Positions 1,791 through 12,456 of a stretch of 64,000 nucleotides of DNA are shown in pieces; position 1 is the first letter of the stretch, and each line of letters starts with the position of its first letter. Below the pieces are notes generated by a model. The model was not told the DNA's origin, searched no databases, and worked only from the letters and a program-made list of their open reading frames with translations. Source of the DNA: an uncultured Gammaproteobacteria bacterium (lineage in GTDB: Bacteria; Patescibacteriota; Microgenomatia; 0-14-0-10-38-17); contig CAYGEH010000001.1 of the NCBI GenBank assembly GCA_964348895.1, positions 110,593-174,592 of the forward strand, given 5' to 3'. Made by a program: the position numbers and the translations under genes.

Positions 1791-2384
1791 ATGAGTGAAA
1801 GTCAACTTGATTCATTTTTAAGAAAAGAATTTTTGCCGCTGAAAGAATTACCTGATAATCCCGATTTGATTGATGTTCGTATGAATACTTGGGGGGTAAC
1901 AAGAGCTGATCATACTAATCCTATACTAAAAACAATAGGATTGGGTCCATGTGTTGCCGTAGCACTTTATGAACCAGATTTAAAAATTGCAGGTCTAGTA
2001 CATATGACAGCACCAGCAATGACTCCCAGATGGGAAGCACCCCATCAAGATATCTTAAATATGCTTACAGCCATGCAGCGAAATGGTGTTTCATGTGACG
2101 CACGAAAAAACATAAAAGCACATTTAGTAGGTGGATGGGCACATGATGATTTAGCTGCGCTTGCGAAGGAAAGACTACACCAGCTTGGTATAGATCAAAT
2201 TCTGACAGACATGCGTACCGAAGGCGTAGACCATCATTGCATTGCATTGGACTCAAGGTCAGGAGATCTTTTCAAATTGATAAAAATTATGCAAGATGGT
2301 ATGGATACACTTGATGTAATGCGCGCAATGATTAAAGTGAGAGATGGTGCAAGTGTAACTTCAGATCATAGATCACTAAGGTGA
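1791..2384 (+). CDS. CheD-like (chemoreceptor glutamine deamidase fold) family protein, orphan
   Basis: Motif IGLGPCVAVALYEPDLKIAGLVHMTAP matches the CheD signature (LGSCVAV...AHVMLP) with the Cys/His catalytic pair. Downstream VGGW and GID..LTDMRTEG segments are colinear with CheD. No other chemotaxis genes are in the window. Confidence 0.6.
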   Translation: MSESQLDSFLRKEFLPLKELPDNPDLIDVRMNTWGVTRADHTNPILKTIGLGPCVAVALYEPDLKIAGLVHMTAPAMTPRWEAPHQDILNMLTAMQRNGVSCDARKNIKAHLVGGWAHDDLAALAKERLHQLGIDQILTDMRTEGVDHHCIALDSRSGDLFKLIKIMQDGMDTLDVMRAMIKVRDGASVTSDHRSLR

Positions 2385-2451
2385 CATTTACCAAACAAAT
2401 CCATTACTGATCTGCTAAATCTCTAAACACATCGACTGCTATTGATGTAGG

Positions 2452-2916
2452 TTATAGCCCTTTGCGTAAGGATTGTACTCGTTGAAGCTCATGTAAGGCT
2501 CGATAAAATTGACGCTCACATGCTGTAATGTAACGCACGTATGTTTTATCCAACGTTTCATACTCTGAGTTTCCAACTTGAATACTGTCGGTTTCCTCTG
2601 AAGTGTAGCGAATCATAGGCATCATAAATCCTTGTGTTAAAAAAGCCTTTTCCGCTTGTATAGCTCGTTGCATACGCATATAGGCAATCACCATAGGCTC
2701 AAGGAGCAAGTCCTCAGTGACACCGTGAGGCTCATATTCAGCTAAAAGAAGTGAGAGTATAGTTTGAGCTTCATCCTTTTCCGTAGATATCAAAGTTCTT
2801 TGAAGTACACCATGACGGATAGCGTTGTACTTGGAGATCTCTTTTCCTGCTTCGGTTTTAACTCCTGCGTTTTGTGTGTTTGTCCTATTTGCTGATATTT
2901 GAGCCTGTGTTGCCAT
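2452..2916 (-). CDS. hypothetical protein (island cargo)
   Basis: 154-aa ORF of higher GC. It overlaps the upstream ORF 2790..3269 by 127 bp in another frame. No recognisable motif. Confidence 0.35.
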   Translation of the reverse strand: MATQAQISANRTNTQNAGVKTEAGKEISKYNAIRHGVLQRTLISTEKDEAQTILSLLLAEYEPHGVTEDLLLEPMVIAYMRMQRAIQAEKAFLTQGFMMPMIRYTSEETDSIQVGNSEYETLDKTYVRYITACERQFYRALHELQRVQSLRKGL

Positions 2917-3269
2917 AATTCATAGTTCGCATCACTTCTTCTTAATAGGAAGCTACTTGGATCGTCTACGCCTTTGAACGTTTGTGAGCGTGTCTCCTCA
3001 TCATTAAAGGTTATTCTGTTACCGTGATTGTCCACCATACTATCTTTATTGAGTTTCGCTTCAGGTGTATCTGTTTTAACCTTTTTCATTGACCCTACAA
3101 GCTCTGTAATAGGTTGTGGTGAGGTTTGTGGAGCGGTTGGTTGAGTGGAAAGTGCGACACCTGTCGCATCTGTGGTTTTCGTAGGTACGTTACCAGCTTG
3201 GTTAGGCTTCTTGATACTAGCTGGATTGTCTACTCCGTAAAAGATTTGCATCTTTCCATTAGTATTCAT
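2790..3269 (-). CDS. hypothetical protein, Thr/Pro/Gln-rich N-terminal region (island cargo)
   Basis: 159-aa ORF. Its 3' end overlaps ORF 2452..2916, so a frameshifted single gene or a shorter true extent is possible. Confidence 0.35.
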   Translation of the reverse strand: MNTNGKMQIFYGVDNPASIKKPNQAGNVPTKTTDATGVALSTQPTAPQTSPQPITELVGSMKKVKTDTPEAKLNKDSMVDNHGNRITFNDEETRSQTFKGVDDPSSFLLRRSDANYELWQHRLKYQQIGQTHKTQELKPKQEKRSPSTTLSVMVYFKEL

Positions 3270-5585: not shown

Positions 5586-6590
5586 TTATTTCCAAAGCTC
5601 TCCTTGTGCAAATTTTCCCCTTAATAAGTTAAAAAACAGCTTTAGCTTACCGGTAAGCAAGAAATTTACTGCTATTGCCATTTTAAATACTTTTAATCGA
5701 TTCGAAGAATAATTTTTTTTAACAAAAAGTAGCATTGAAGCAAAAAACTGCTGATAGAGGGCGTTTTTATTTTTATCTAATTTATTCTTCCAACTGGCCC
5801 CGCCAAGATGAACAATCTTAGCCTCAGGAACAACAAGGAGTCGAACTTTCATTTTTCTTGCTCGCCAACTCCAATCAACATCTTCCCAAAAAAACCTAAA
5901 ATCAGGATCAAGGCTGCCTACTTTTTGCCAAACCTCTCGACTTGCCATTAGGGCGGCACCAGGAAGCTGATCAACCTCAAATGGTTCTTGTTTGGCTTCT
6001 TGACAAATCAAATTTTTTAGGGGCGTTTTCATTATTATGGGTCTTAACAAGGGGTTGTGGTAAAAAAAGATTTGCCAAAGAGTTGGAAAACGCATATAGT
6101 AATCAAGCTGGGGTTGTCCACTTTGTAATTCTAATAAAGGGGAAACAGCGGTATTTTCGTTTTTATTTAAATATTCAACCAACCTTTCTATCGCCCCAGT
6201 TGTTACAATCGTGTCTGAGTTAAGGAGCAAAATATATTGTCCAGAGGCCTGTTTAATCCCGCTATTATTCCCTCTAGAAAAACCTAAGTTCTCTTTATTT
6301 TCAATCAGCTTAATATTAAGTGGCTGATTGGTATCGGCTACTAGTTTCTTTAAATACTCTAGGCTTCCATCAGTTGAGCCATTATCAACCACAATCACTT
6401 CTCCAAAAGGAGGGAGGCTTTCTAAACATCCTTTTAATAAGTTTTTGGTATTCCAAGATAAAACAACAATGCTAACTTTGATTTCTTCAGTCTTTTTCGG
6501 CATCCTCGAGAACACTTTTTCTGGAGTAGTTCTTTTTTCTTCTGCCTTGGTCTGTTTTTTCATAAACCCTAATCTCTTGCTATTCCCCAA
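5586..6590 (-). CDS. glycosyltransferase family 2 protein
   Basis: VSIVVLSWN...VIVVDNGSTDGS...DXD-type core. The likely true start is MKKQTKAEEKRTT at 6563, because its N-terminal peptide is mirrored in the next gene. Confidence 0.8.
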   Translation of the reverse strand: MGNSKRLGFMKKQTKAEEKRTTPEKVFSRMPKKTEEIKVSIVVLSWNTKNLLKGCLESLPPFGEVIVVDNGSTDGSLEYLKKLVADTNQPLNIKLIENKENLGFSRGNNSGIKQASGQYILLLNSDTIVTTGAIERLVEYLNKNENTAVSPLLELQSGQPQLDYYMRFPTLWQIFFYHNPLLRPIIMKTPLKNLICQEAKQEPFEVDQLPGAALMASREVWQKVGSLDPDFRFFWEDVDWSWRARKMKVRLLVVPEAKIVHLGGASWKNKLDKNKNALYQQFFASMLLFVKKNYSSNRLKVFKMAIAVNFLLTGKLKLFFNLLRGKFAQGELWK

Positions 6591-8191
6591 GAATAAACCT
6601 CAACCGGCCAGTAACGAGGTTGAACAGGATAAAGACGGTCAACTTCTAGTTCTTTTTTAAGGTTGCCTGTAATATACTCCCTAACCCCACTTGGCAACTT
6701 AGTTTCCCAGCTTTCTAATAAAATTAGACCCCGAGAATTGTCAGCAACAACCCCCTTAAGCTGATCTAGGTCCCAAAGGTGTCGTGCCCCCGAAACTGGA
6801 TCGATTTCTGTTTTGTGGTTGGGCACCCTTAATAAATAATCAAGGCCGCCTTCACCTAAATACCAAATAGGGTGATCGTTCCAGTTAGAAATAAAAACTG
6901 CTTCTGGGTTCGCCTGTAGTTCTTTCTCAATGAAAGCATAAATTTTTTTATAATCAACTTCAGGAACCTCTTGCATATCTTCACTTAAAGAATAAAACCT
7001 CCTAGGACGCAGGGTAAATTTATGACCCATAGTGGCAAAAAGCAAGGCAAGCAACAGCAAAAGCACAAAGCCTCCTCGGGGGCGAATTAATCCAAGCTGA
7101 CGAGGCAATCCCTTCCAAGAAGAAAGAAAATAAGAAGCCTCAGTCAAGCCAATCGCACCAAGAAGAATTAAAAAAGGAAAAACAATATAGAAATAACGGA
7201 CAAATGGCTGAGGCAATAAAAGAGAAATCAAGGTAATTTGAAGTGCAAGAGGAAAGGCTAAAAAAGCTAGTTTTAACCATTCTTTTCTTATAAAAAGAGC
7301 TAGTCCCCCTATTAGGGCCAAGAGAACTAAGGCTGGATAATCATGCCAAAGAAAAACTCGATAATAAAAAAGATTATTAACTCTGCCTAGGCTGGAAATT
7401 ACTGCCCAAAGGTGGCCTCTAAAAGCATAGATCAGGGGAATACCAGCCAGAAAACTAAGAGGGAGCCATTTCTTTATTAAATTAAACCGAAAAACGGCCA
7501 AAAACAAAACACCAGCCAAAAGAATTACTATTCCCAAGCCATGCAAAAGCGAAACCAAAACTCCGCTTCCCAAAAATCCTAAAAAATAACGCCAATTAAG
7601 CTTCTTTTCCTTTACCAATCTCCAAACAAACCAAAAAGCGAGCAAATAAAAAAACTGCATCGCTTGATATGGTCGGGCTTGGCGAGACCAAAGAATTTCA
7701 ATATTTAAGAAGGTGATAAAAAAGGCGGCCAGCAACGGAATAAGTTCTTTTGCTGACGGTAAAGTTAAACAAGACGAAGCCTTTGTTTTTTCCGAAACAG
7801 AAAGGGGAAACAATTCTCTTCCCAACAGCCAAATCGCCCAAATTGTTAAAACGCCAAAAATAAGCGAAGGAAAGCGAAGTGCAAATTCATTCAAACCGAA
7901 AATCCTTGCCGAAACCGCCCCTAACCAATACCAAAGCCACTGATAAACTCCAGTAGAGTAGCCATGATCTAAAACTGGCTGACCCCTTTCTAATATCGCC
8001 CTAACAAAAATGGCGACATGACCCTCATCATTCCAAAAAGAATAATTATTTCTTAAGCCGTAAAACCGATAAAAAAACCCAACAAGCAACAGAAAAATTA
8101 AAGTAATTTTTGAACCCAGCTGTTTTGACCACTCCGGAAATGTTTTACTGGAAGTGGTTTTTTTGGCTTCGGCCTTGGTTTGCCTCTTCAT
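6569..8191 (-). CDS. glycosyltransferase family 39/83 (ArnT/PMT-like) polytopic membrane protein
   Basis: Multi-TM protein. N-terminal FYRFYGL...FWNDEG and a long hydrophobic core are typical of ArnT/PMT-like undecaprenyl/dolichyl-phosphate sugar transferases. Confidence 0.6.
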   Translation of the reverse strand: MKRQTKAEAKKTTSSKTFPEWSKQLGSKITLIFLLLVGFFYRFYGLRNNYSFWNDEGHVAIFVRAILERGQPVLDHGYSTGVYQWLWYWLGAVSARIFGLNEFALRFPSLIFGVLTIWAIWLLGRELFPLSVSEKTKASSCLTLPSAKELIPLLAAFFITFLNIEILWSRQARPYQAMQFFYLLAFWFVWRLVKEKKLNWRYFLGFLGSGVLVSLLHGLGIVILLAGVLFLAVFRFNLIKKWLPLSFLAGIPLIYAFRGHLWAVISSLGRVNNLFYYRVFLWHDYPALVLLALIGGLALFIRKEWLKLAFLAFPLALQITLISLLLPQPFVRYFYIVFPFLILLGAIGLTEASYFLSSWKGLPRQLGLIRPRGGFVLLLLLALLFATMGHKFTLRPRRFYSLSEDMQEVPEVDYKKIYAFIEKELQANPEAVFISNWNDHPIWYLGEGGLDYLLRVPNHKTEIDPVSGARHLWDLDQLKGVVADNSRGLILLESWETKLPSGVREYITGNLKKELEVDRLYPVQPRYWPVEVYSWGIARD

Positions 8192-8532
8192 GTTTTTTTA
8201 GTCTTTTTAGTCTCTTGTAAAAATTCAATTACCATCTGGACTATCCCCACCACTAAAAACATATAGGCCCAAATAGCAGCTTTTTCAGCAATTAAGTCTT
8301 TTTTTAAAATTAATAAAATCGGACAGGTAATTAAAAATCCCAGTGCTCCTGTCACCGAAATTCTGCCTTTAAATTTATAAAGCCAAACAGACAGAACCCA
8401 AAGGCCTGTTAATAAAAAAATAACTAAATCAAAGGTTGGATTGAAAATAAAAATATCAAACAAAATCCCCGCTCCTGTGCCAATTAATATCCAAAATTTA
8501 AATTTCTGCAAAAATTCTTTAATTTTTCTCAT
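8188..8532 (-). CDS. small membrane protein, apparently the detached C-terminal fragment of the large membrane protein gene at 8947..12456
   Basis: 114 aa with 3-4 TM helices. The reading frame upstream of its ATG runs without a stop through the 34-bp repeat copy at 8597..8630 and encodes QPQRLFYLGLFISGLTLIGSLGYLGYGLIKRKK-MRKIKEF. This continues the C-terminus of the big gene. ATGA start/stop overlap with the GT39 gene. Confidence 0.5.
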   Translation of the reverse strand: MRKIKEFLQKFKFWILIGTGAGILFDIFIFNPTFDLVIFLLTGLWVLSVWLYKFKGRISVTGALGFLITCPILLILKKDLIAEKAAIWAYMFLVVGIVQMVIEFLQETKKTKKT

Positions 8533-8596
8533 TTTTTTCTTTTAATTAAACCATAGCCCAAATACCCCAAAGACCCAATCAAGGTTAAGCCTGAAA

Positions 8597-8630
8597 TAAA
8601 TAAACCCAAATAAAATAAACGCTGGGGTTG
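8597..8630. repeat. 34-bp perfect direct repeat, copy 1 (taaataaacccaaataaaataaacgctggggttg)
   Basis: Identical 34-mer recurs at 9021..9054. The two copies flank the GIY-YIG gene. Confidence 0.85.
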
Positions 8631-9020
8631 TCCCAAGAACTTTTTTTAAAAGTTCAGGGACAATTAACCCTGAATTTATAGTTTTTATAATAGTTCTTCA
8701 ACCTGGTGTTTATGAATTTGGTTCCCCATCTGCCCTTTAAGTATTTTTCGCGATTTTTGGCGTCAACTTTGTTTAAGCAAGCTTCGTAATAAATAAGCCT
8801 AAGGGGTGTCCTATTTTTAGTTGAGATGTTTGTTCCTTTATTGTGTTCATCAATCCTTTTCTTTAAGTTTTCGGTATATCCAATATATCTTCTCTTGTCC
8901 TTTAGGCTTTCTAAAATATAAGCGTAAAACATAAAAATTATAAATTCTAGGCGTTTAATTTATTCCGAAATTTATCATATATTAAATAAATGATACATCC
9001 TATAAAAACAAAAATACTTA
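8631..9020 (-). mobile_element. putative GIY-YIG gene insertion cassette (inserted segment between the direct repeats)
   Basis: The segment between the repeats carries the GIY-YIG ORF and a 24-codon replacement 3' end plus stop (SIFVFIGCIIYLIYDKFRNKLNA*) for the interrupted host gene. Confidence 0.5.
8654..8932 (-). CDS. GIY-YIG nuclease family protein (YhbQ/UPF0213-like, 92 aa)
   Basis: FYAYILES...RRYIGYTENLKKRIDEHN matches the GIY-(10-11)-YIG motif with conserved Arg, Glu and Asn. Confidence 0.75.
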   Translation of the reverse strand: MFYAYILESLKDKRRYIGYTENLKKRIDEHNKGTNISTKNRTPLRLIYYEACLNKVDAKNREKYLKGRWGTKFINTRLKNYYKNYKFRVNCP

Positions 9021-12000
9021 TAAATAAACCCAAATAAAATAAACGCTGGGGTTGGAACTCAATTATCACTTCGTAATTTTCCCTTCCTCCGCTGTCTTCT
9101 GGAGTAATATACCAAGAGTTGGCATAACCATTAACCAGTAAATGACGCTCTTGAGGAAGCGGATCTTTGCCCCAAGTCTCAAAAGTGGCTTTTTCTAAAA
9201 AGATGTTGCGATGAACACCTTCTTTTATTTCTCCGTCAAAATAACTGGCCACAATTTCTTCTTGATTTTGCGTTGTTCCTCTTAAATTTTCTGTTTTATT
9301 AATATAAGCTCTCCAGCCCCGATGAAAGCTTTCAGAAAAAATTAAAGTGTATGGTTCTTTGGCTCCTTCTACTCTAACCCGATATTTTGTTGGGTTAATC
9401 TTGGTAAAGGTAATTCTTGGCATTGCCTGCTCCTCTTGGTTAATGTTTTCTGTTTTGGCGCGCAACATTATTTTAGGCCTGACAACTTTTCTTACCTGTA
9501 AATTTCTAAACTCCACCTCGGCAAGCTGATCTAAATCAGCTTGGGAATAAAAATAAATCTTGGCCTCCAGAGCATTTTTATCCGCAGTTAAAAATCCTTC
9601 AAACTTTTTCCACTCTTCAGTTGAGCCCTGATTCTTTAAATTCTTGGTAAATATTTTTGTTATTTTCGTTCCCTCTTCTGCCTCTTTTCTTCTTTCTTCT
9701 AATACGCCAACCCCCAGGCTTCCCTTCTCGATTTTGTACTCAAAAGTCAAATAATAAAAACTATCTGCTTGCCAATCATTAATTTCTTGAAAAACAAGAT
9801 TTTCTGCCCCAGGAAAGAACTCTTGGGGAAAAAATCCAACCCCTTCTTCTGCCTTTTCCAGCTCTTTCCTTGTCTGCCAGTCGGGGCCAACTAAATTAGC
9901 CGACTCTGGTAGGCGAAGGGTTAGTTTGTTTTTTCCTTGATTAAATTCTTCCCTGCCAATCTCTGTCCAGCCTTCATTGGCGACTAATCTTCCTTCTTCT
10001 ATTTGTATTTCTCTGCCCTCTGTTAGTATTTCTAGACCTGTCAGCTGGCTAATGTCTTGAATAAACAGCGAATAGATTCCGCTTTTAGGAACCTCAAAGC
10101 TATATTCCAGATTTTTTAAGTCGCCACTACCCAAGGGGTCAATTTTTTCGGCTAATTCTGCAAACATTTTTCTCCACTCGTCTGCTGTTGTTTCTCTCCC
10201 TTGCTTGTTAATAAATATTTTTTCTACTCTTTCTTGATGCGCCTCCCAATAGGCCCCAATTTTTATCATCATTTCTGTTCTCTTTTCTGCTTTTGGTAAT
10301 TGCTTGGCTTCCTCTAGGGCTTCTTCCATTTTTAGCCGATATGCCCTTAGGGTAATTCCTTGAACTCTTTTTTCTTCTCCCCAGCTCTCTAGTTCAGAAA
10401 TTCTCTTTCCCGCATAAAATAATTTCTTTTCAATTAATTCTTCTTGATTGTTTCTTACCCTCCATTCCTCTAACCATTCTCTGGCTAAAGCCAAGCGATA
10501 GGCAAGGCTTCCCGGCTGATGACGAACATGGGGAAAAGGAACGCCAATTTTAAAGTTATCTCTTTTTCTTGTTTTTTCAAAAAAATTATCGCCAATACTA
10601 TTTTCTAGGTTTGTTTTAATAAAGATTTTATCCGCCCGACTTCTTAGTTTGCTAGCTGTTTCTTCTTTTAGCTCACCAGTCTTAGTTAAATAAATTCCTG
10701 ATCTTATTTTGTAATCCTCAAATCCAACTACATCAACTAAGCTTTCAATTCCTCCAGTTGAGTAAATTATGTTTTGGGGAATATAAAAGTGGGGAAGAAA
10801 ATTGTTATTTTCAAAAAGTGAAACCTTGTTCCAATCCATTACTAAGCTTAGGTTTTGTAAGCTTTTTAATGTTGATGTTATTTCTTCTCCGCTTTTTTCT
10901 CCAAATAAGACATTATTCCGCACGGCAACATATTTAGCTCCAATCAGGGGCAACATTTTTTCTAGGAATTTTCCTTCTCCTCTCTTTGTTTCTTCGGCTA
11001 TTTTTAAACCAATAATAGACCCTGGATTGTCTAAATCTCGATCAGAAATCGCCCAACCTCCTCTTTTGGGAGAAAAAATAGCAAAAATATCAACAATTCC
11101 TCGATATTCACCCAAAAAATTTTTGTTGTCATTAGGTTTTAGCACTCCTCCGATGGGAAGATATAAAACCTTAACCCCCTCTTTTTGTTTTTCCAAATAA
11201 CTTTCCAAACTAAAATATTCTGAAGGAAAACTATAAGCTCTTAACCTAATATCATGTTGTTTTTTTTGCTCTTCAAACAATTCCCCACCCCAAAACGGAT
11301 AGGCATTAAGAAAAAGCAGAACCACCAAAAATCCTCCAGCGAAACGAAAGGCTTTTTTTTTCTGTTTAAAAAGAAAGTTTAAAAACAGTGTTGTTAAAAC
11401 AACAAAAGAAAAAGAGGGAAGAACCAAAAACCGCCCCATATCTCTGAAAACGTCTGAAAACGGCAATCTGCTAATAAAATGCGGACCAAAAGAAAAAAGA
11501 ATTGGTGTGACTAAGGCAATGAAAACCAAAGAAATTATTAGTTTTTTTTTAGGGAAAAAGATAATTGAAAGAAAAGATAGAACTGGTAAAAGAAAAGACA
11601 AGGGGACTAGAATTTGAGGATAACTTGTTTCATATTGATAATTAAATAAACTTCCCCATAATCTTAAAATATTTAAATAGCTTAATCTTGTCCAGGTTCC
11701 TAAGCTTGTAGGCGAAAGACCAAATCTTGTTGTAAACAATCCACTTCCACCGCTAAAAAGAGGGGGTGCCCACCAAAAAGCGCTTATTCCTAAAAAAACA
11801 AAAAATATAATGAAAATAGATTTTAAATAAACAGCGAAGCTTTTTTTGTTATTAATAAGAAAAAAAGCAAAAGAAAAAAAGGTTAACGGATACCAAAAAA
11901 CAGCTTGCGACTGAAATGCTGCCAAAAAATAAAGGAAACCAACCAAAACTGAATAAAAGAATCTTTCTTCTTGAACTGACTTAATAAAAAGGATTAAGGC

Positions 12001-12456
12001 AAAAGGTAAAATCCCCATTGAAAGAAGAACAAACTGCCAGCCCATTGACGCATAATTAAAAAAGAAGGGAAGGGTAATATAAAGCAATCCACCCAAAAAA
12101 GAAGTTTTTCGAGAACAACCCAAAAACTTACAAAACAGATACATGAAAAACCCTGAAAGAAAAAAAATTAAAAACAAAAACATGCTAGGAATAATTCCTC
12201 CAGAAAGCCCTATTATCCCCAATAAATAGACTATTAGCCTAAAAAATAAATCACTTAAAAAAAACTGAGGAGCCCCCAAAAGATCATTTTCTGCCCAAGT
12301 AAATAAATTTCTCAAGAAATAAGCTTGGGTTTGACCAAACCCCATGGGAAACAACCAGTCTCCCCCAGAAATTATCCCCGAGAAAAAAAATAACTCTTTA
12401 AATAAAAAAGAAATAAAAAAGAAATAAAAAAAAGTAACCAGTAAGTTTATTTTCAT
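8947..12456 (-). CDS. large polytopic membrane protein (~14 N-terminal TM helices plus a large extracytoplasmic domain), possible glycosyltransferase or glycan-polymerase-type protein; truncated by the GIY-YIG insertion
   Basis: 1169 aa. Very hydrophobic N-terminal 400 aa, then a soluble domain and a C-terminal TM helix. The 3' end carries direct-repeat copy 2. Confidence 0.55.
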   Translation of the reverse strand: MKINLLVTFFYFFFISFLFKELFFFSGIISGGDWLFPMGFGQTQAYFLRNLFTWAENDLLGAPQFFLSDLFFRLIVYLLGIIGLSGGIIPSMFLFLIFFLSGFFMYLFCKFLGCSRKTSFLGGLLYITLPFFFNYASMGWQFVLLSMGILPFALILFIKSVQEERFFYSVLVGFLYFLAAFQSQAVFWYPLTFFSFAFFLINNKKSFAVYLKSIFIIFFVFLGISAFWWAPPLFSGGSGLFTTRFGLSPTSLGTWTRLSYLNILRLWGSLFNYQYETSYPQILVPLSFLLPVLSFLSIIFFPKKKLIISLVFIALVTPILFSFGPHFISRLPFSDVFRDMGRFLVLPSFSFVVLTTLFLNFLFKQKKKAFRFAGGFLVVLLFLNAYPFWGGELFEEQKKQHDIRLRAYSFPSEYFSLESYLEKQKEGVKVLYLPIGGVLKPNDNKNFLGEYRGIVDIFAIFSPKRGGWAISDRDLDNPGSIIGLKIAEETKRGEGKFLEKMLPLIGAKYVAVRNNVLFGEKSGEEITSTLKSLQNLSLVMDWNKVSLFENNNFLPHFYIPQNIIYSTGGIESLVDVVGFEDYKIRSGIYLTKTGELKEETASKLRSRADKIFIKTNLENSIGDNFFEKTRKRDNFKIGVPFPHVRHQPGSLAYRLALAREWLEEWRVRNNQEELIEKKLFYAGKRISELESWGEEKRVQGITLRAYRLKMEEALEEAKQLPKAEKRTEMMIKIGAYWEAHQERVEKIFINKQGRETTADEWRKMFAELAEKIDPLGSGDLKNLEYSFEVPKSGIYSLFIQDISQLTGLEILTEGREIQIEEGRLVANEGWTEIGREEFNQGKNKLTLRLPESANLVGPDWQTRKELEKAEEGVGFFPQEFFPGAENLVFQEINDWQADSFYYLTFEYKIEKGSLGVGVLEERRKEAEEGTKITKIFTKNLKNQGSTEEWKKFEGFLTADKNALEAKIYFYSQADLDQLAEVEFRNLQVRKVVRPKIMLRAKTENINQEEQAMPRITFTKINPTKYRVRVEGAKEPYTLIFSESFHRGWRAYINKTENLRGTTQNQEEIVASYFDGEIKEGVHRNIFLEKATFETWGKDPLPQERHLLVNGYANSWYITPEDSGGRENYEVIIEFQPQRLFYLGLFISIFVFIGCIIYLIYDKFRNKLNA
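9021..9054. repeat. 34-bp perfect direct repeat, copy 2 (inside the 3' coding end of 8947..12456)
   Basis: Identical to 8597..8630. It encodes QPQRLFYLGLF in the large membrane protein. Confidence 0.85.

Follow-up and report, generated by a model that had tools for sequence, protein, structure and literature searches.

A compact GIY-YIG cassette carrying a replacement gene end, probably mobile by a homing-type process, at the 3' end of a membrane-protein gene family of Patescibacteria

Anatomy of the locus

The 64-kb stretch of contig CAYGEH010000001.1 analysed here (the window), from an uncultured member of the Patescibacteriota, contains a gene for a 92-amino-acid (aa) GIY-YIG nuclease lying between the 3' end of a 1169-aa membrane-protein gene, hereafter the host gene, and a gene for a small membrane protein of 114 aa. 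All features of the window described below are on the minus strand (Table 1). The window contains exactly two copies of the sequence TAAATAAACCCAAATAAAATAAACGCTGGGGTTG (the 34-mer), at 8597-8630 and 9021-9054, where the chance expectation is zero; perfect identity of the pair reaches 35 nucleotides (nt), and the copies are spaced by 424 nt. An earlier note, made from the sequence alone, had described this pair correctly, as well as the position of one copy within the 3' coding end of the 1169-aa open reading frame (ORF) and of the other downstream of the GIY-YIG gene, and the substitute C-terminus SIFVFIGCIIYLIYDKFRNKLNA with its stop codon. The arrangement is very probably the result of an insertion, in which a composite mobile cassette of 424 bp entered the host gene at a point one codon upstream of its PQRLFY block. 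The cassette would comprise three parts: a foreign but homologous gene tail with its own stop (tail A); a core of ~0.28 kb, in which an 85-92-aa UPF0213-type GIY-YIG ORF lies within short inverted repeats; and a short hairpin-forming 3' segment ending at a fixed junction. Because the host gene is now continued by tail A, it still encodes a complete protein. The native tail (tail B) persists as a stub that is not translated, and retains its overlap with the beginning of the next gene.

The inverted-repeat arms of the core (8931-8947 and 8672-8688) are reverse-complementary over 17 nt with one mismatch. Two overlapping hairpins were found at the 3' end of the element, the first formed by TTCAGGG and CCCTGAA around an 8-nt loop and followed by CTTTT, which is terminator-like, and the second by GTCCCTGAACTTTT and AAAAGTTCTTGGGAC around AAA. 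The fold of this segment reaches -16.9 kcal/mol (z=-3.7), and compensatory changes were found among loci (GAACTTTT/AAAAGTTC, GAATTTTT/AAAAATTC and GAATTTTG/CAAAATTC). The segment terminates in ...GTTCTTGGGA (read as 'KFLG'), and this right end of the cassette is conserved.

The same repeat/GIY-YIG structure is present in independent assemblies of this organism (L001), and a 544-nt contig (L003) covers both repeat copies, so the structure is not an assembly artefact. Outside the window, the 34-mer was seen only in contigs of this organism, which rules out the dispersed, common genomic repeat that the earlier note had considered as an objection to its own reading. Neither other GIY-YIG copies nor other host-family targets were found within the 64-kb window.

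Table 1. Coordinates of the cassette and the adjoining genes in the window.
Feature	Position	Strand	Remarks
Hybrid host gene, 1169 aa	8947..12456	-	Last 23 codons are the foreign tail A
Repeat copy R1, 35 nt perfect	9020..9054	-	Codes for QPQRLFYLGLFI, the C-terminal block that is best conserved in the host family
Tail A, foreign replacement C-terminus SIFVFIGCIIYLIYDKFRNKLNA with TAG stop	8947..9019	-	Travels with the element
Left inverted-repeat arm of the core GIY-YIG unit, TAGAATTTATAATTTTT	8931..8947	-	Overlaps the tail A stop and the pre-ATG spacer
GIY-YIG nuclease gene, 92 aa, UPF0213-type, catalytic domain only	8654..8932	-	PF01541
Right inverted-repeat arm of the core unit	8672..8688	-	Within the last codons of the GIY-YIG ORF
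Two overlapping hairpins, element 3' end	8630..8674	-	Fold, terminator-like scan and compensatory changes
Repeat copy R2, 35 nt perfect	8596..8630	-	Start of the displaced native 3' end
Tail B, displaced native C-terminus SGLTLIGSLGYLGYGLIKRKK with TGA stop	8529..8595	-	Detached from the host gene
Small membrane-protein gene, 114 aa	8188..8532	-	Separate downstream operon partner

Empty sites and recurrence of the insertion at one position

Loci of the host family were surveyed by pattern search with one genome per species, and a GIY-YIG gene was sought within 3 kb of each. Among 80 species-level loci, 79 were empty, and the sole occupied one (L014) belongs to a Shapirobacteria genome. Empty-site tails, as in L015, L016, L017 and L021, are intact and coupled to the downstream gene. 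Three close orthologs, P0004, P0007 and P0009, likewise have empty loci. Empty sites do therefore exist, and the situation in which all relatives carry the same split architecture, which the earlier note had named as the outcome contrary to its proposal, was not encountered; conserved synteny of the GIY-YIG gene with the host gene is likewise ruled out by the 79 empty loci.

The closest relatives of the GIY-YIG protein are 64-73% identical to the copy in the window, and all eight whose loci were read (P0036, P0038, P0039, P0041, P0043, P0044, P0047 and P0048) directly follow a member of this same host family, as does the GIY-YIG gene of the metagenome locus L100. The full order of tail A, stop, GIY-YIG gene and tail B was found in the window and in seven relative loci, with a unit length of 397-433 nt and the same right junction throughout, located between ...GGGN and (TGG/CAA/GAG)CCNCAR, where the first host codon encodes W, Q or E. 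This recurrent insertion occurs in hosts whose upstream regions are just 29-65% identical. The host-associated GIY-YIG proteins are mutual nearest neighbours among 86 compared, and they are more similar to each other than are the conserved C-terminal regions of their hosts (73% vs 43% aa identity between the window and L178, and 76% vs 42% between L006 and L178).

Several loci show variants of this architecture. In L176/L177, the GIY-YIG gene follows a host gene whose tail (..CIAYLIYDKFYKRK) resembles tail A of the window, and no tail B is present, an arrangement that looks like a donor-like state. In L179 (~1-460), a GIY-YIG gene truncated to 16 codons is followed by a tail and then by another GIY-YIG gene, which is intact. 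The tail block is present three times in L184 (~2380-3200), in the order tail A, GIY-YIG, an identical tail A, fused arms and tail B; the ORF of the extra cassette copy has been deleted between the repeat arms (..KVAKNL-stop-ISGAG..). Judging from their organization, these two loci look like stages of decay and re-invasion.

Two of the occupied loci also carry, close downstream of the cassette, a gene of the 23S_rRNA_IVP family (PF05635; L006:5762-6142 and L185:855-1235), whose usual location is in rRNA intervening sequences. As for the organism of the window, two other assemblies of it break at the edges of the cassette: contig L002 starts at window position 8999, and L003 corresponds to window positions 8594..9137 and ends 2-3 nt beyond the second repeat copy. 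These breaks, in assemblies made with k=141, hint at sequence heterogeneity around the cassette and are no proof of an empty allele.

Origin of the two tails and nature of the repeat

For the comparison of tails, empty-site orthologs were ranked by the protein body upstream of the conserved block, and both tails were then scored against the nearest ones (six in the case of the window). Tail B of the window scored 42 and tail A 21; in L100, the scores were 44 for tail B and 24 for tail A. Moreover, the best matches of tail A of the window are element-linked tails, namely those of L176 (ending in the sequence given above) and L100 (..CVIFIVCDFRNKKVARNL), and its end, GCC TAG AAT TTA TAA, is homologous to GCA AGA AAT TTA TAA (ARNL and stop) of L100. 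From these similarities, the in-frame tail A of the window is the foreign one and the displaced tail B the native one. The tails of the close orthologs P0004 and P0009, ending in ..KLRN and ..AARN, respectively, also seemed element-like, and their loci are empty. In P0004 (L173/L174:~6060-6110), a short tandem repeat, GAAATTAAGAAATT.., forms the end of the gene and translates as KLRNWEIKKLRN, a stop and EIKKF; its resemblance to the element-derived ..ARN(S/L)-stop ends is superficial and the two are unrelated.

The perfect run counted from the junction codon measures 35 nt in the window, and 103, 33, 23, 11, 5, 5 and 1 nt in the sister loci. Such variation (1 to 103 nt) is incompatible with a fixed terminal repeat, as which the earlier note had treated the 34-mer, and with a target-site duplication. 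The 34-mer is better read as the probable footprint of recombination or gene conversion in the conserved block EFxPQRLFYLGL. Likewise, the similarity between the two tails differs among loci, which implies either that the left crossover is variable or that the tails have been homogenised by gene conversion.

Taken together, these comparisons demonstrate insertion of the cassette, its recurrence at one site in a family with empty loci, the foreign origin of the tail now in use in the window, and mobility or horizontal spread across the family. One-site recurrence in diverged hosts, sporadic presence beside empty sites and an element more conserved than its hosts are what would be expected from a homing-type element. 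The earlier proposal that a ~424-bp unit bringing a GIY-YIG gene and a substitute C-terminus was inserted, with homing-type behaviour, is in this respect upheld by the empty loci, the recurrence, the target-specific clade and the foreign tail.

The same data bear on a simpler explanation, according to which the GIY-YIG gene is an ordinary operon partner inherited vertically, the second tail arose by local tandem duplication and the absences reflect repeated loss. The gene is indeed always co-oriented with the host gene and starts 6-14 nt after its stop, the direct repeats would permit precise loss, and in two loci (L182 and L184) the tails are nearly identical. However, the gene is missing from 79/80 orthologous loci and from all the closest orthologs of the window, tail A is foreign in both the window and L100, GIY-YIG identity exceeds host identity, and genes unrelated to the host gene are interrupted by sister lineages within this protein family (see below). 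Vertical inheritance with an operon partner is consequently very improbable, and it already fails on patchiness and tail discordance.

The host gene family and its downstream partner

The 1169-aa host protein is a multi-pass membrane protein of a Patescibacteria family, of which 33 homologs were detected, all from Patescibacteria-type metagenome bins. Nearly all of them terminate in EFxPQ(R/K)LFYxGLxIS, one transmembrane (TM) helix and a basic tail, and since the 34-mer encodes this conserved C-terminal block, tails A and B are both plausible C-termini for the family.

Read through the downstream repeat copy, the frame encodes ...KKFLGQPQRLFYLGLFISGLTLIGSLGYLGYGLIKRKK and stops at the TGA at 8531..8529, which overlaps the ATG (8532..8530) of the 114-aa ORF as ATGA, the two frames being different. 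In L015, L016, L017 and L021, where the big gene is uninterrupted, a homolog of the 114-aa ORF comes after its stop or overlaps with it, and in L006 the homolog comes after the tail B stub. The stop overlap and the conservation of the 114-aa ORF as a separate gene indicate that the ancestral gene ended at 8529, and the uninterrupted host gene spanned about 8529..12456. Three statements of the earlier note have to be corrected on this point: the frame does not continue uninterrupted into MRKIKEF, the ancestral gene did not extend over 8188..12456, and the 114-aa ORF is not an orphaned C-terminal TM domain, the displaced piece being a stub of 33 codons (8529..8630). Tail B is thus the native 3' end, keeping the native overlap with the downstream gene seen at empty sites.

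No Pfam family was matched by the 1169-aa protein even at E<=10, and no NCBIfam model was found. The C-terminal region of the family (P0002-P0034) is strongly conserved, with the motifs INPTKY.., FSESFH.GW, VNGYANSWYI and EFWPQRLFY, and the distant homolog P0030 bears PF11847. The neighbours of the host gene encode GT4, methyltransferase, PMT_2 and GT2 proteins, an operon context of cell-envelope glycosylation.

A stand-alone catalytic domain of the UPF0213 type

The 92-aa ORF matches PF01541 with E=1.3e-14 (54.7 bits vs a cutoff of 22.6) over residues 1-68, and a profile built from this protein and 24 relatives matches the UPF0213 structures 1zg2 (1e-9) and 1ywl (1e-7), followed by SLX1, in agreement with the identification made in the earlier note. 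In the alignment of 25 relatives, the invariant residues Y5, Y16, G18, R26, H30 and E62 correspond to the conserved catalytic residues. The protein is therefore best assigned, on profile and residue conservation, to the UPF0213 (YhbQ-like) branch of the GIY-YIG superfamily, for which at least 845 homologs were found. It is a stand-alone single domain, as are its relatives of 80-103 aa, in which only PF01541 and related matches were detected. Neither a second domain nor a DNA-binding module was found in the 92-aa protein with Pfam or NCBIfam, and the catalytic domain fills the protein. Proteins of the UPF0213 type have long been annotated as of unknown function or, wrongly, as 'excinuclease ABC subunit C'.

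The ORF in the window exceeds those of its relatives by seven codons (KFRVNCP and stop, after ..YKNY), as seen by comparison with the ends of L006 and L004. This extension results from loss of the ancestral TGA (in ..TTATGAATTT..), the present stop being a TGA inside the 3' hairpin.

Inverted repeats and other targets in the wider GIY-YIG family

Covarying inverted repeats of 14-25 nt bracket the GIY-YIG ORF in 69 of 82 loci (L092-L171 and others), exceeding all shuffled controls. The 5' arm precedes the ATG by 5-45 nt, and the last codons (..YLTG) together with the stop form the 3' arm, so that a compact unit of about 0.28 kb is delimited. As examples of covariation, GTGAGATA pairs with TATCTCAC and GTTAGATA with TATCTAAC, the change in the 3' arm being a synonymous Leu codon.

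Different sub-lineages occupy different targets. Tyrosine-recombinase genes with Phage_integrase and N-terminal SAM-like domains are interrupted inside the conserved catalytic region, directly after ..QELLGH in five loci (L105, L106, L108, L119 and L128) and at nearby positions in three others (L159, L141 and L127). Removal of the ~277-283 nt unit restores intact integrase ORFs of 342-431 aa; the elements of this class are 93-96% identical at the nucleotide level, and the most conserved flanks of their hosts are 75-82% identical at the aa level. In four diverged hosts (L097, L139, L147 and L110), a Bro-N gene is interrupted between ..GYPxDWI and ..MRGIAIREELTDEW, with both halves intact, and removal of the unit again restores the Bro-N ORFs. 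The integrase and Bro-N insertions are precise, and target-site duplications, which were looked for, were not seen at them.

Another sub-lineage is located directly 5' of the start codons of housekeeping genes, namely groES (L162), rplJ (L168), nusG (L152), an M50 peptidase gene (L154) and a patatin-like gene (L093), and it also includes L096. Its 5' arm begins with ATGCCC(A/G/C)GT.. and its 3' arm ends with ..AC(T/C/G)GGGT right before the host ATG, so that the host ORF is left untouched. Finally, a replacement-tail architecture was found in an unrelated LamG-like gene (L131, ~650-1060), in the order ..RIY, junction, NRALTADEILQLYQLGSRKLEVKK and stop, GIY-YIG gene, NRALSASEIEELYKMGTRKVEMKKY and stop, the second copy beginning at the GIY-YIG stop codon. 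Two other candidates for flank duplication were discarded: in L150, which had been scored as such, the GIY-YIG gene lies between two tandem ORF6N-like paralogs, a different architecture, and L117 is ambiguous.

These features raise the question of whether the core could be a transposon-like unit, whose terminal inverted repeats are recognised as DNA and which moves by cut-and-paste or copy-and-paste, the tail duplication being a secondary rearrangement. The inverted repeats do reach the very ends of the unit in the 69 loci and covary, many unrelated sites are used, including three different positions within integrase genes, and the ORF-deleted footprint in L184 can be read as an excision scar. 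On the other hand, the precise integrase and Bro-N insertions are devoid of target-site duplications, the unit encodes no transposase or recombinase, the GIY-YIG nuclease being its only ORF, and each sub-lineage keeps one fixed site in diverged homologs, as is typical of homing. The arms of the clade found in the window are palindromic (AAATTTATAAATTT), and the deletion in L184 is therefore explained by short direct identity. GIY-YIG enzymes act, to our knowledge, by hydrolysing DNA, and are not known to carry out strand transfer. A transposon-like nature of the core is, on balance, unlikely.

The bracketing repeats could also be understood at the RNA level, with the unit removed as an intervening sequence, its stem joining the exon ends and tail B remaining usable. 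This would fit with the integrase and Bro-N halves being intact and in register in several diverged hosts, with the 15-25 bp stem that the inverted repeats would form to close the unit, with all eight tail B stubs being open and of full length, and with a survey reporting GIY-YIG-encoding non-intron insertions in rRNA genes of the candidate phyla radiation (CPR) (PMC11270868). Nevertheless, no Rfam match beyond noise was found in the region of the window at E<=10, and none in 20 related loci; the absence of a ribozyme-core match rules out a self-splicing group I or II intron, and the unit is too small for such a core. Replacement tails and precise placement before start codons imply protection of the host at the DNA level, which would be needless if the unit were spliced, and intact halves are also to be expected from recent insertion, given copies that are 93-96% identical in nucleotide sequence. 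Removal at the RNA level has, accordingly, scarcely any likelihood. Carriage by phages is ruled out as well, as only two weak relatives of the GIY-YIG family were found in viral contigs.

A putative homing mechanism and the points that weigh against it

Under the preferred reading of a homing-type cassette, the core GIY-YIG unit would first have settled at the extreme 3' end of one member of the host family, a state that L176 still displays. When the conserved EFxPQRLFY region of a homolog without the element is then broken, repair would use an occupied copy as template. The 92-aa nuclease is presumed to make this initiating break and to set its position. The cassette, flanked by the conserved-block copies R1 and R2, carries its own homology arms, and these could allow it to be copied into distant family members, with a left crossover that varies and a right junction that does not. 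In this model, the 34/35-nt perfect repeat would be the footprint of that recombination, or a later gene-conversion tract between the two tails.

Several observations weigh against this interpretation or narrow it. In L004, L006 and L178, both tails are equally host-like, and the foreign origin of tail A is consequently demonstrated for the window and L100 only. In L182 and L184, the near identity of the two tails would also be expected from in-situ duplication or from strong gene conversion. Duplication of a tail or flank is absent from about 70 of 75 metagenome relatives. When the empty allele of the window was reconstructed (..GAGTTC, the 34-mer and TTTCAGGCTTAACC..), the resulting 1167-aa protein was not found in the protein collection; with no empty allele for the species, recent mobility in this lineage is not shown. 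After insertion, R1 and its upstream flank still resemble the intact target over at least 35 nt, which leaves the immunity of the occupied allele unexplained, and the homing model does not account for the origin of the first tail duplication. Lastly, a DNA-binding domain is present, as far as we know, in all characterised GIY-YIG homing endonucleases, and sequence-specific cutting by the 92-aa protein alone, which carries no recognisable one, is doubtful.

Relationship to known systems

The closest known counterpart of the cassette is the fungal mitochondrial mORF, which offers a clear precedent (PMC3630166). In mORFs, described in atp6 of Allomyces macrogynus, in atp6, atp9, cox2 and nad3 of Glomus sp., in atp9 of Rhizopus and in cox2 of Mortierella, an ORF for a LAGLIDADG endonuclease (GIY-YIG in atp9) lies near the 3' end of a conserved gene, which has acquired a replacement C-terminus (PMC3630166). 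As in the cassette, the endonuclease ORF is accompanied by a foreign homologous C-terminus fused in frame and by the native C-terminus displaced downstream, the phylogenetic signal of the foreign tail is discordant, and the insertion is missing from close relatives. By contrast, the host of the present element is a chromosomal operon of bacteria (Patescibacteria) and not a mitochondrial genome, the nuclease is an 85-92-aa, catalytic-domain-only UPF0213 protein and not a multi-domain homing endonuclease, and the ORF lies within inverted repeats. The right junction, unlike that of mORFs, is identical across distant hosts, in accordance with a cassette that carries both homology arms.

The free-standing Seg proteins of T-even phages and the intron-encoded I-TevI are proteins of ~200-250 aa with separate DNA-binding domains. 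They share with the cassette the GIY-YIG catalytic motif, selfish spread into element-free loci and a patchy distribution among close relatives. They differ from it in having the DNA-binding domains that its protein lacks and in carrying no replacement gene end, and the present family, unlike phage Seg, is nearly absent from viral contigs. In size and single-domain organization, the 92-aa protein is like its best matches, the stand-alone UPF0213/YhbQ proteins (1zg2 BH0048 and 1ywl EF2693) and the domain of SLX1, a structure-specific nuclease that works with a partner. No report linking UPF0213/YhbQ proteins to mobility or homing was found in a search that left most subscription journals outside.

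Within the same bacterial radiation, GIY-YIG-encoding non-intron insertions in CPR rRNA genes were judged by their authors not to be spread by homing (PMC11270868). These insertions likewise contain small GIY-YIG ORFs and match no intron model, but the targets of the elements studied here are protein-coding genes and the evidence of site-specific recurrence is strong. In the searchable literature, a replacement-tail cassette was not found described for bacteria or for the minimal UPF0213 nuclease family; the novelty claimed in the earlier note for UPF0213-type proteins is not contradicted there, although the architecture itself has its precedent in fungal mitochondria (PMC3630166).

Significance for the GIY-YIG family and its hosts

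Beyond the locus in the window, stand-alone UPF0213-type GIY-YIG proteins may largely be the engines of a class of ultra-compact mobile elements (0.28-0.43 kb), not recognised before, that are site-specific, bracketed by inverted repeats and present in CPR and other uncultivated bacteria, a generalization to which we give slightly less than an even chance. Its sub-lineages would spare their hosts in different ways, by providing a replacement 3' end, by inserting exactly at the start codons of essential genes (groES, rplJ and nusG) or by parasitising genes of other mobile elements (integrases and Bro-N), and specificity would be achieved in some new way, for example through oligomerisation, through recognition of DNA structure or through their own inverted repeats.

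If true, this would provide a function for a large orphan family, that of the stand-alone UPF0213 GIY-YIG proteins with at least 845 relatives, and would extend the spare-gene-end mechanism of homing from fungal mitochondria to bacterial chromosomes. The core would be the smallest autonomous nuclease-based mobile unit known to us, raising the question of how a catalytic domain of ~85 aa finds a specific site. Such elements would also account for gene-tail mosaicism, pseudo-duplications and assembly breaks in Patescibacteria genomes, and would call for caution in annotation, as the small ORF stubs that follow these cassettes would be displaced gene ends.

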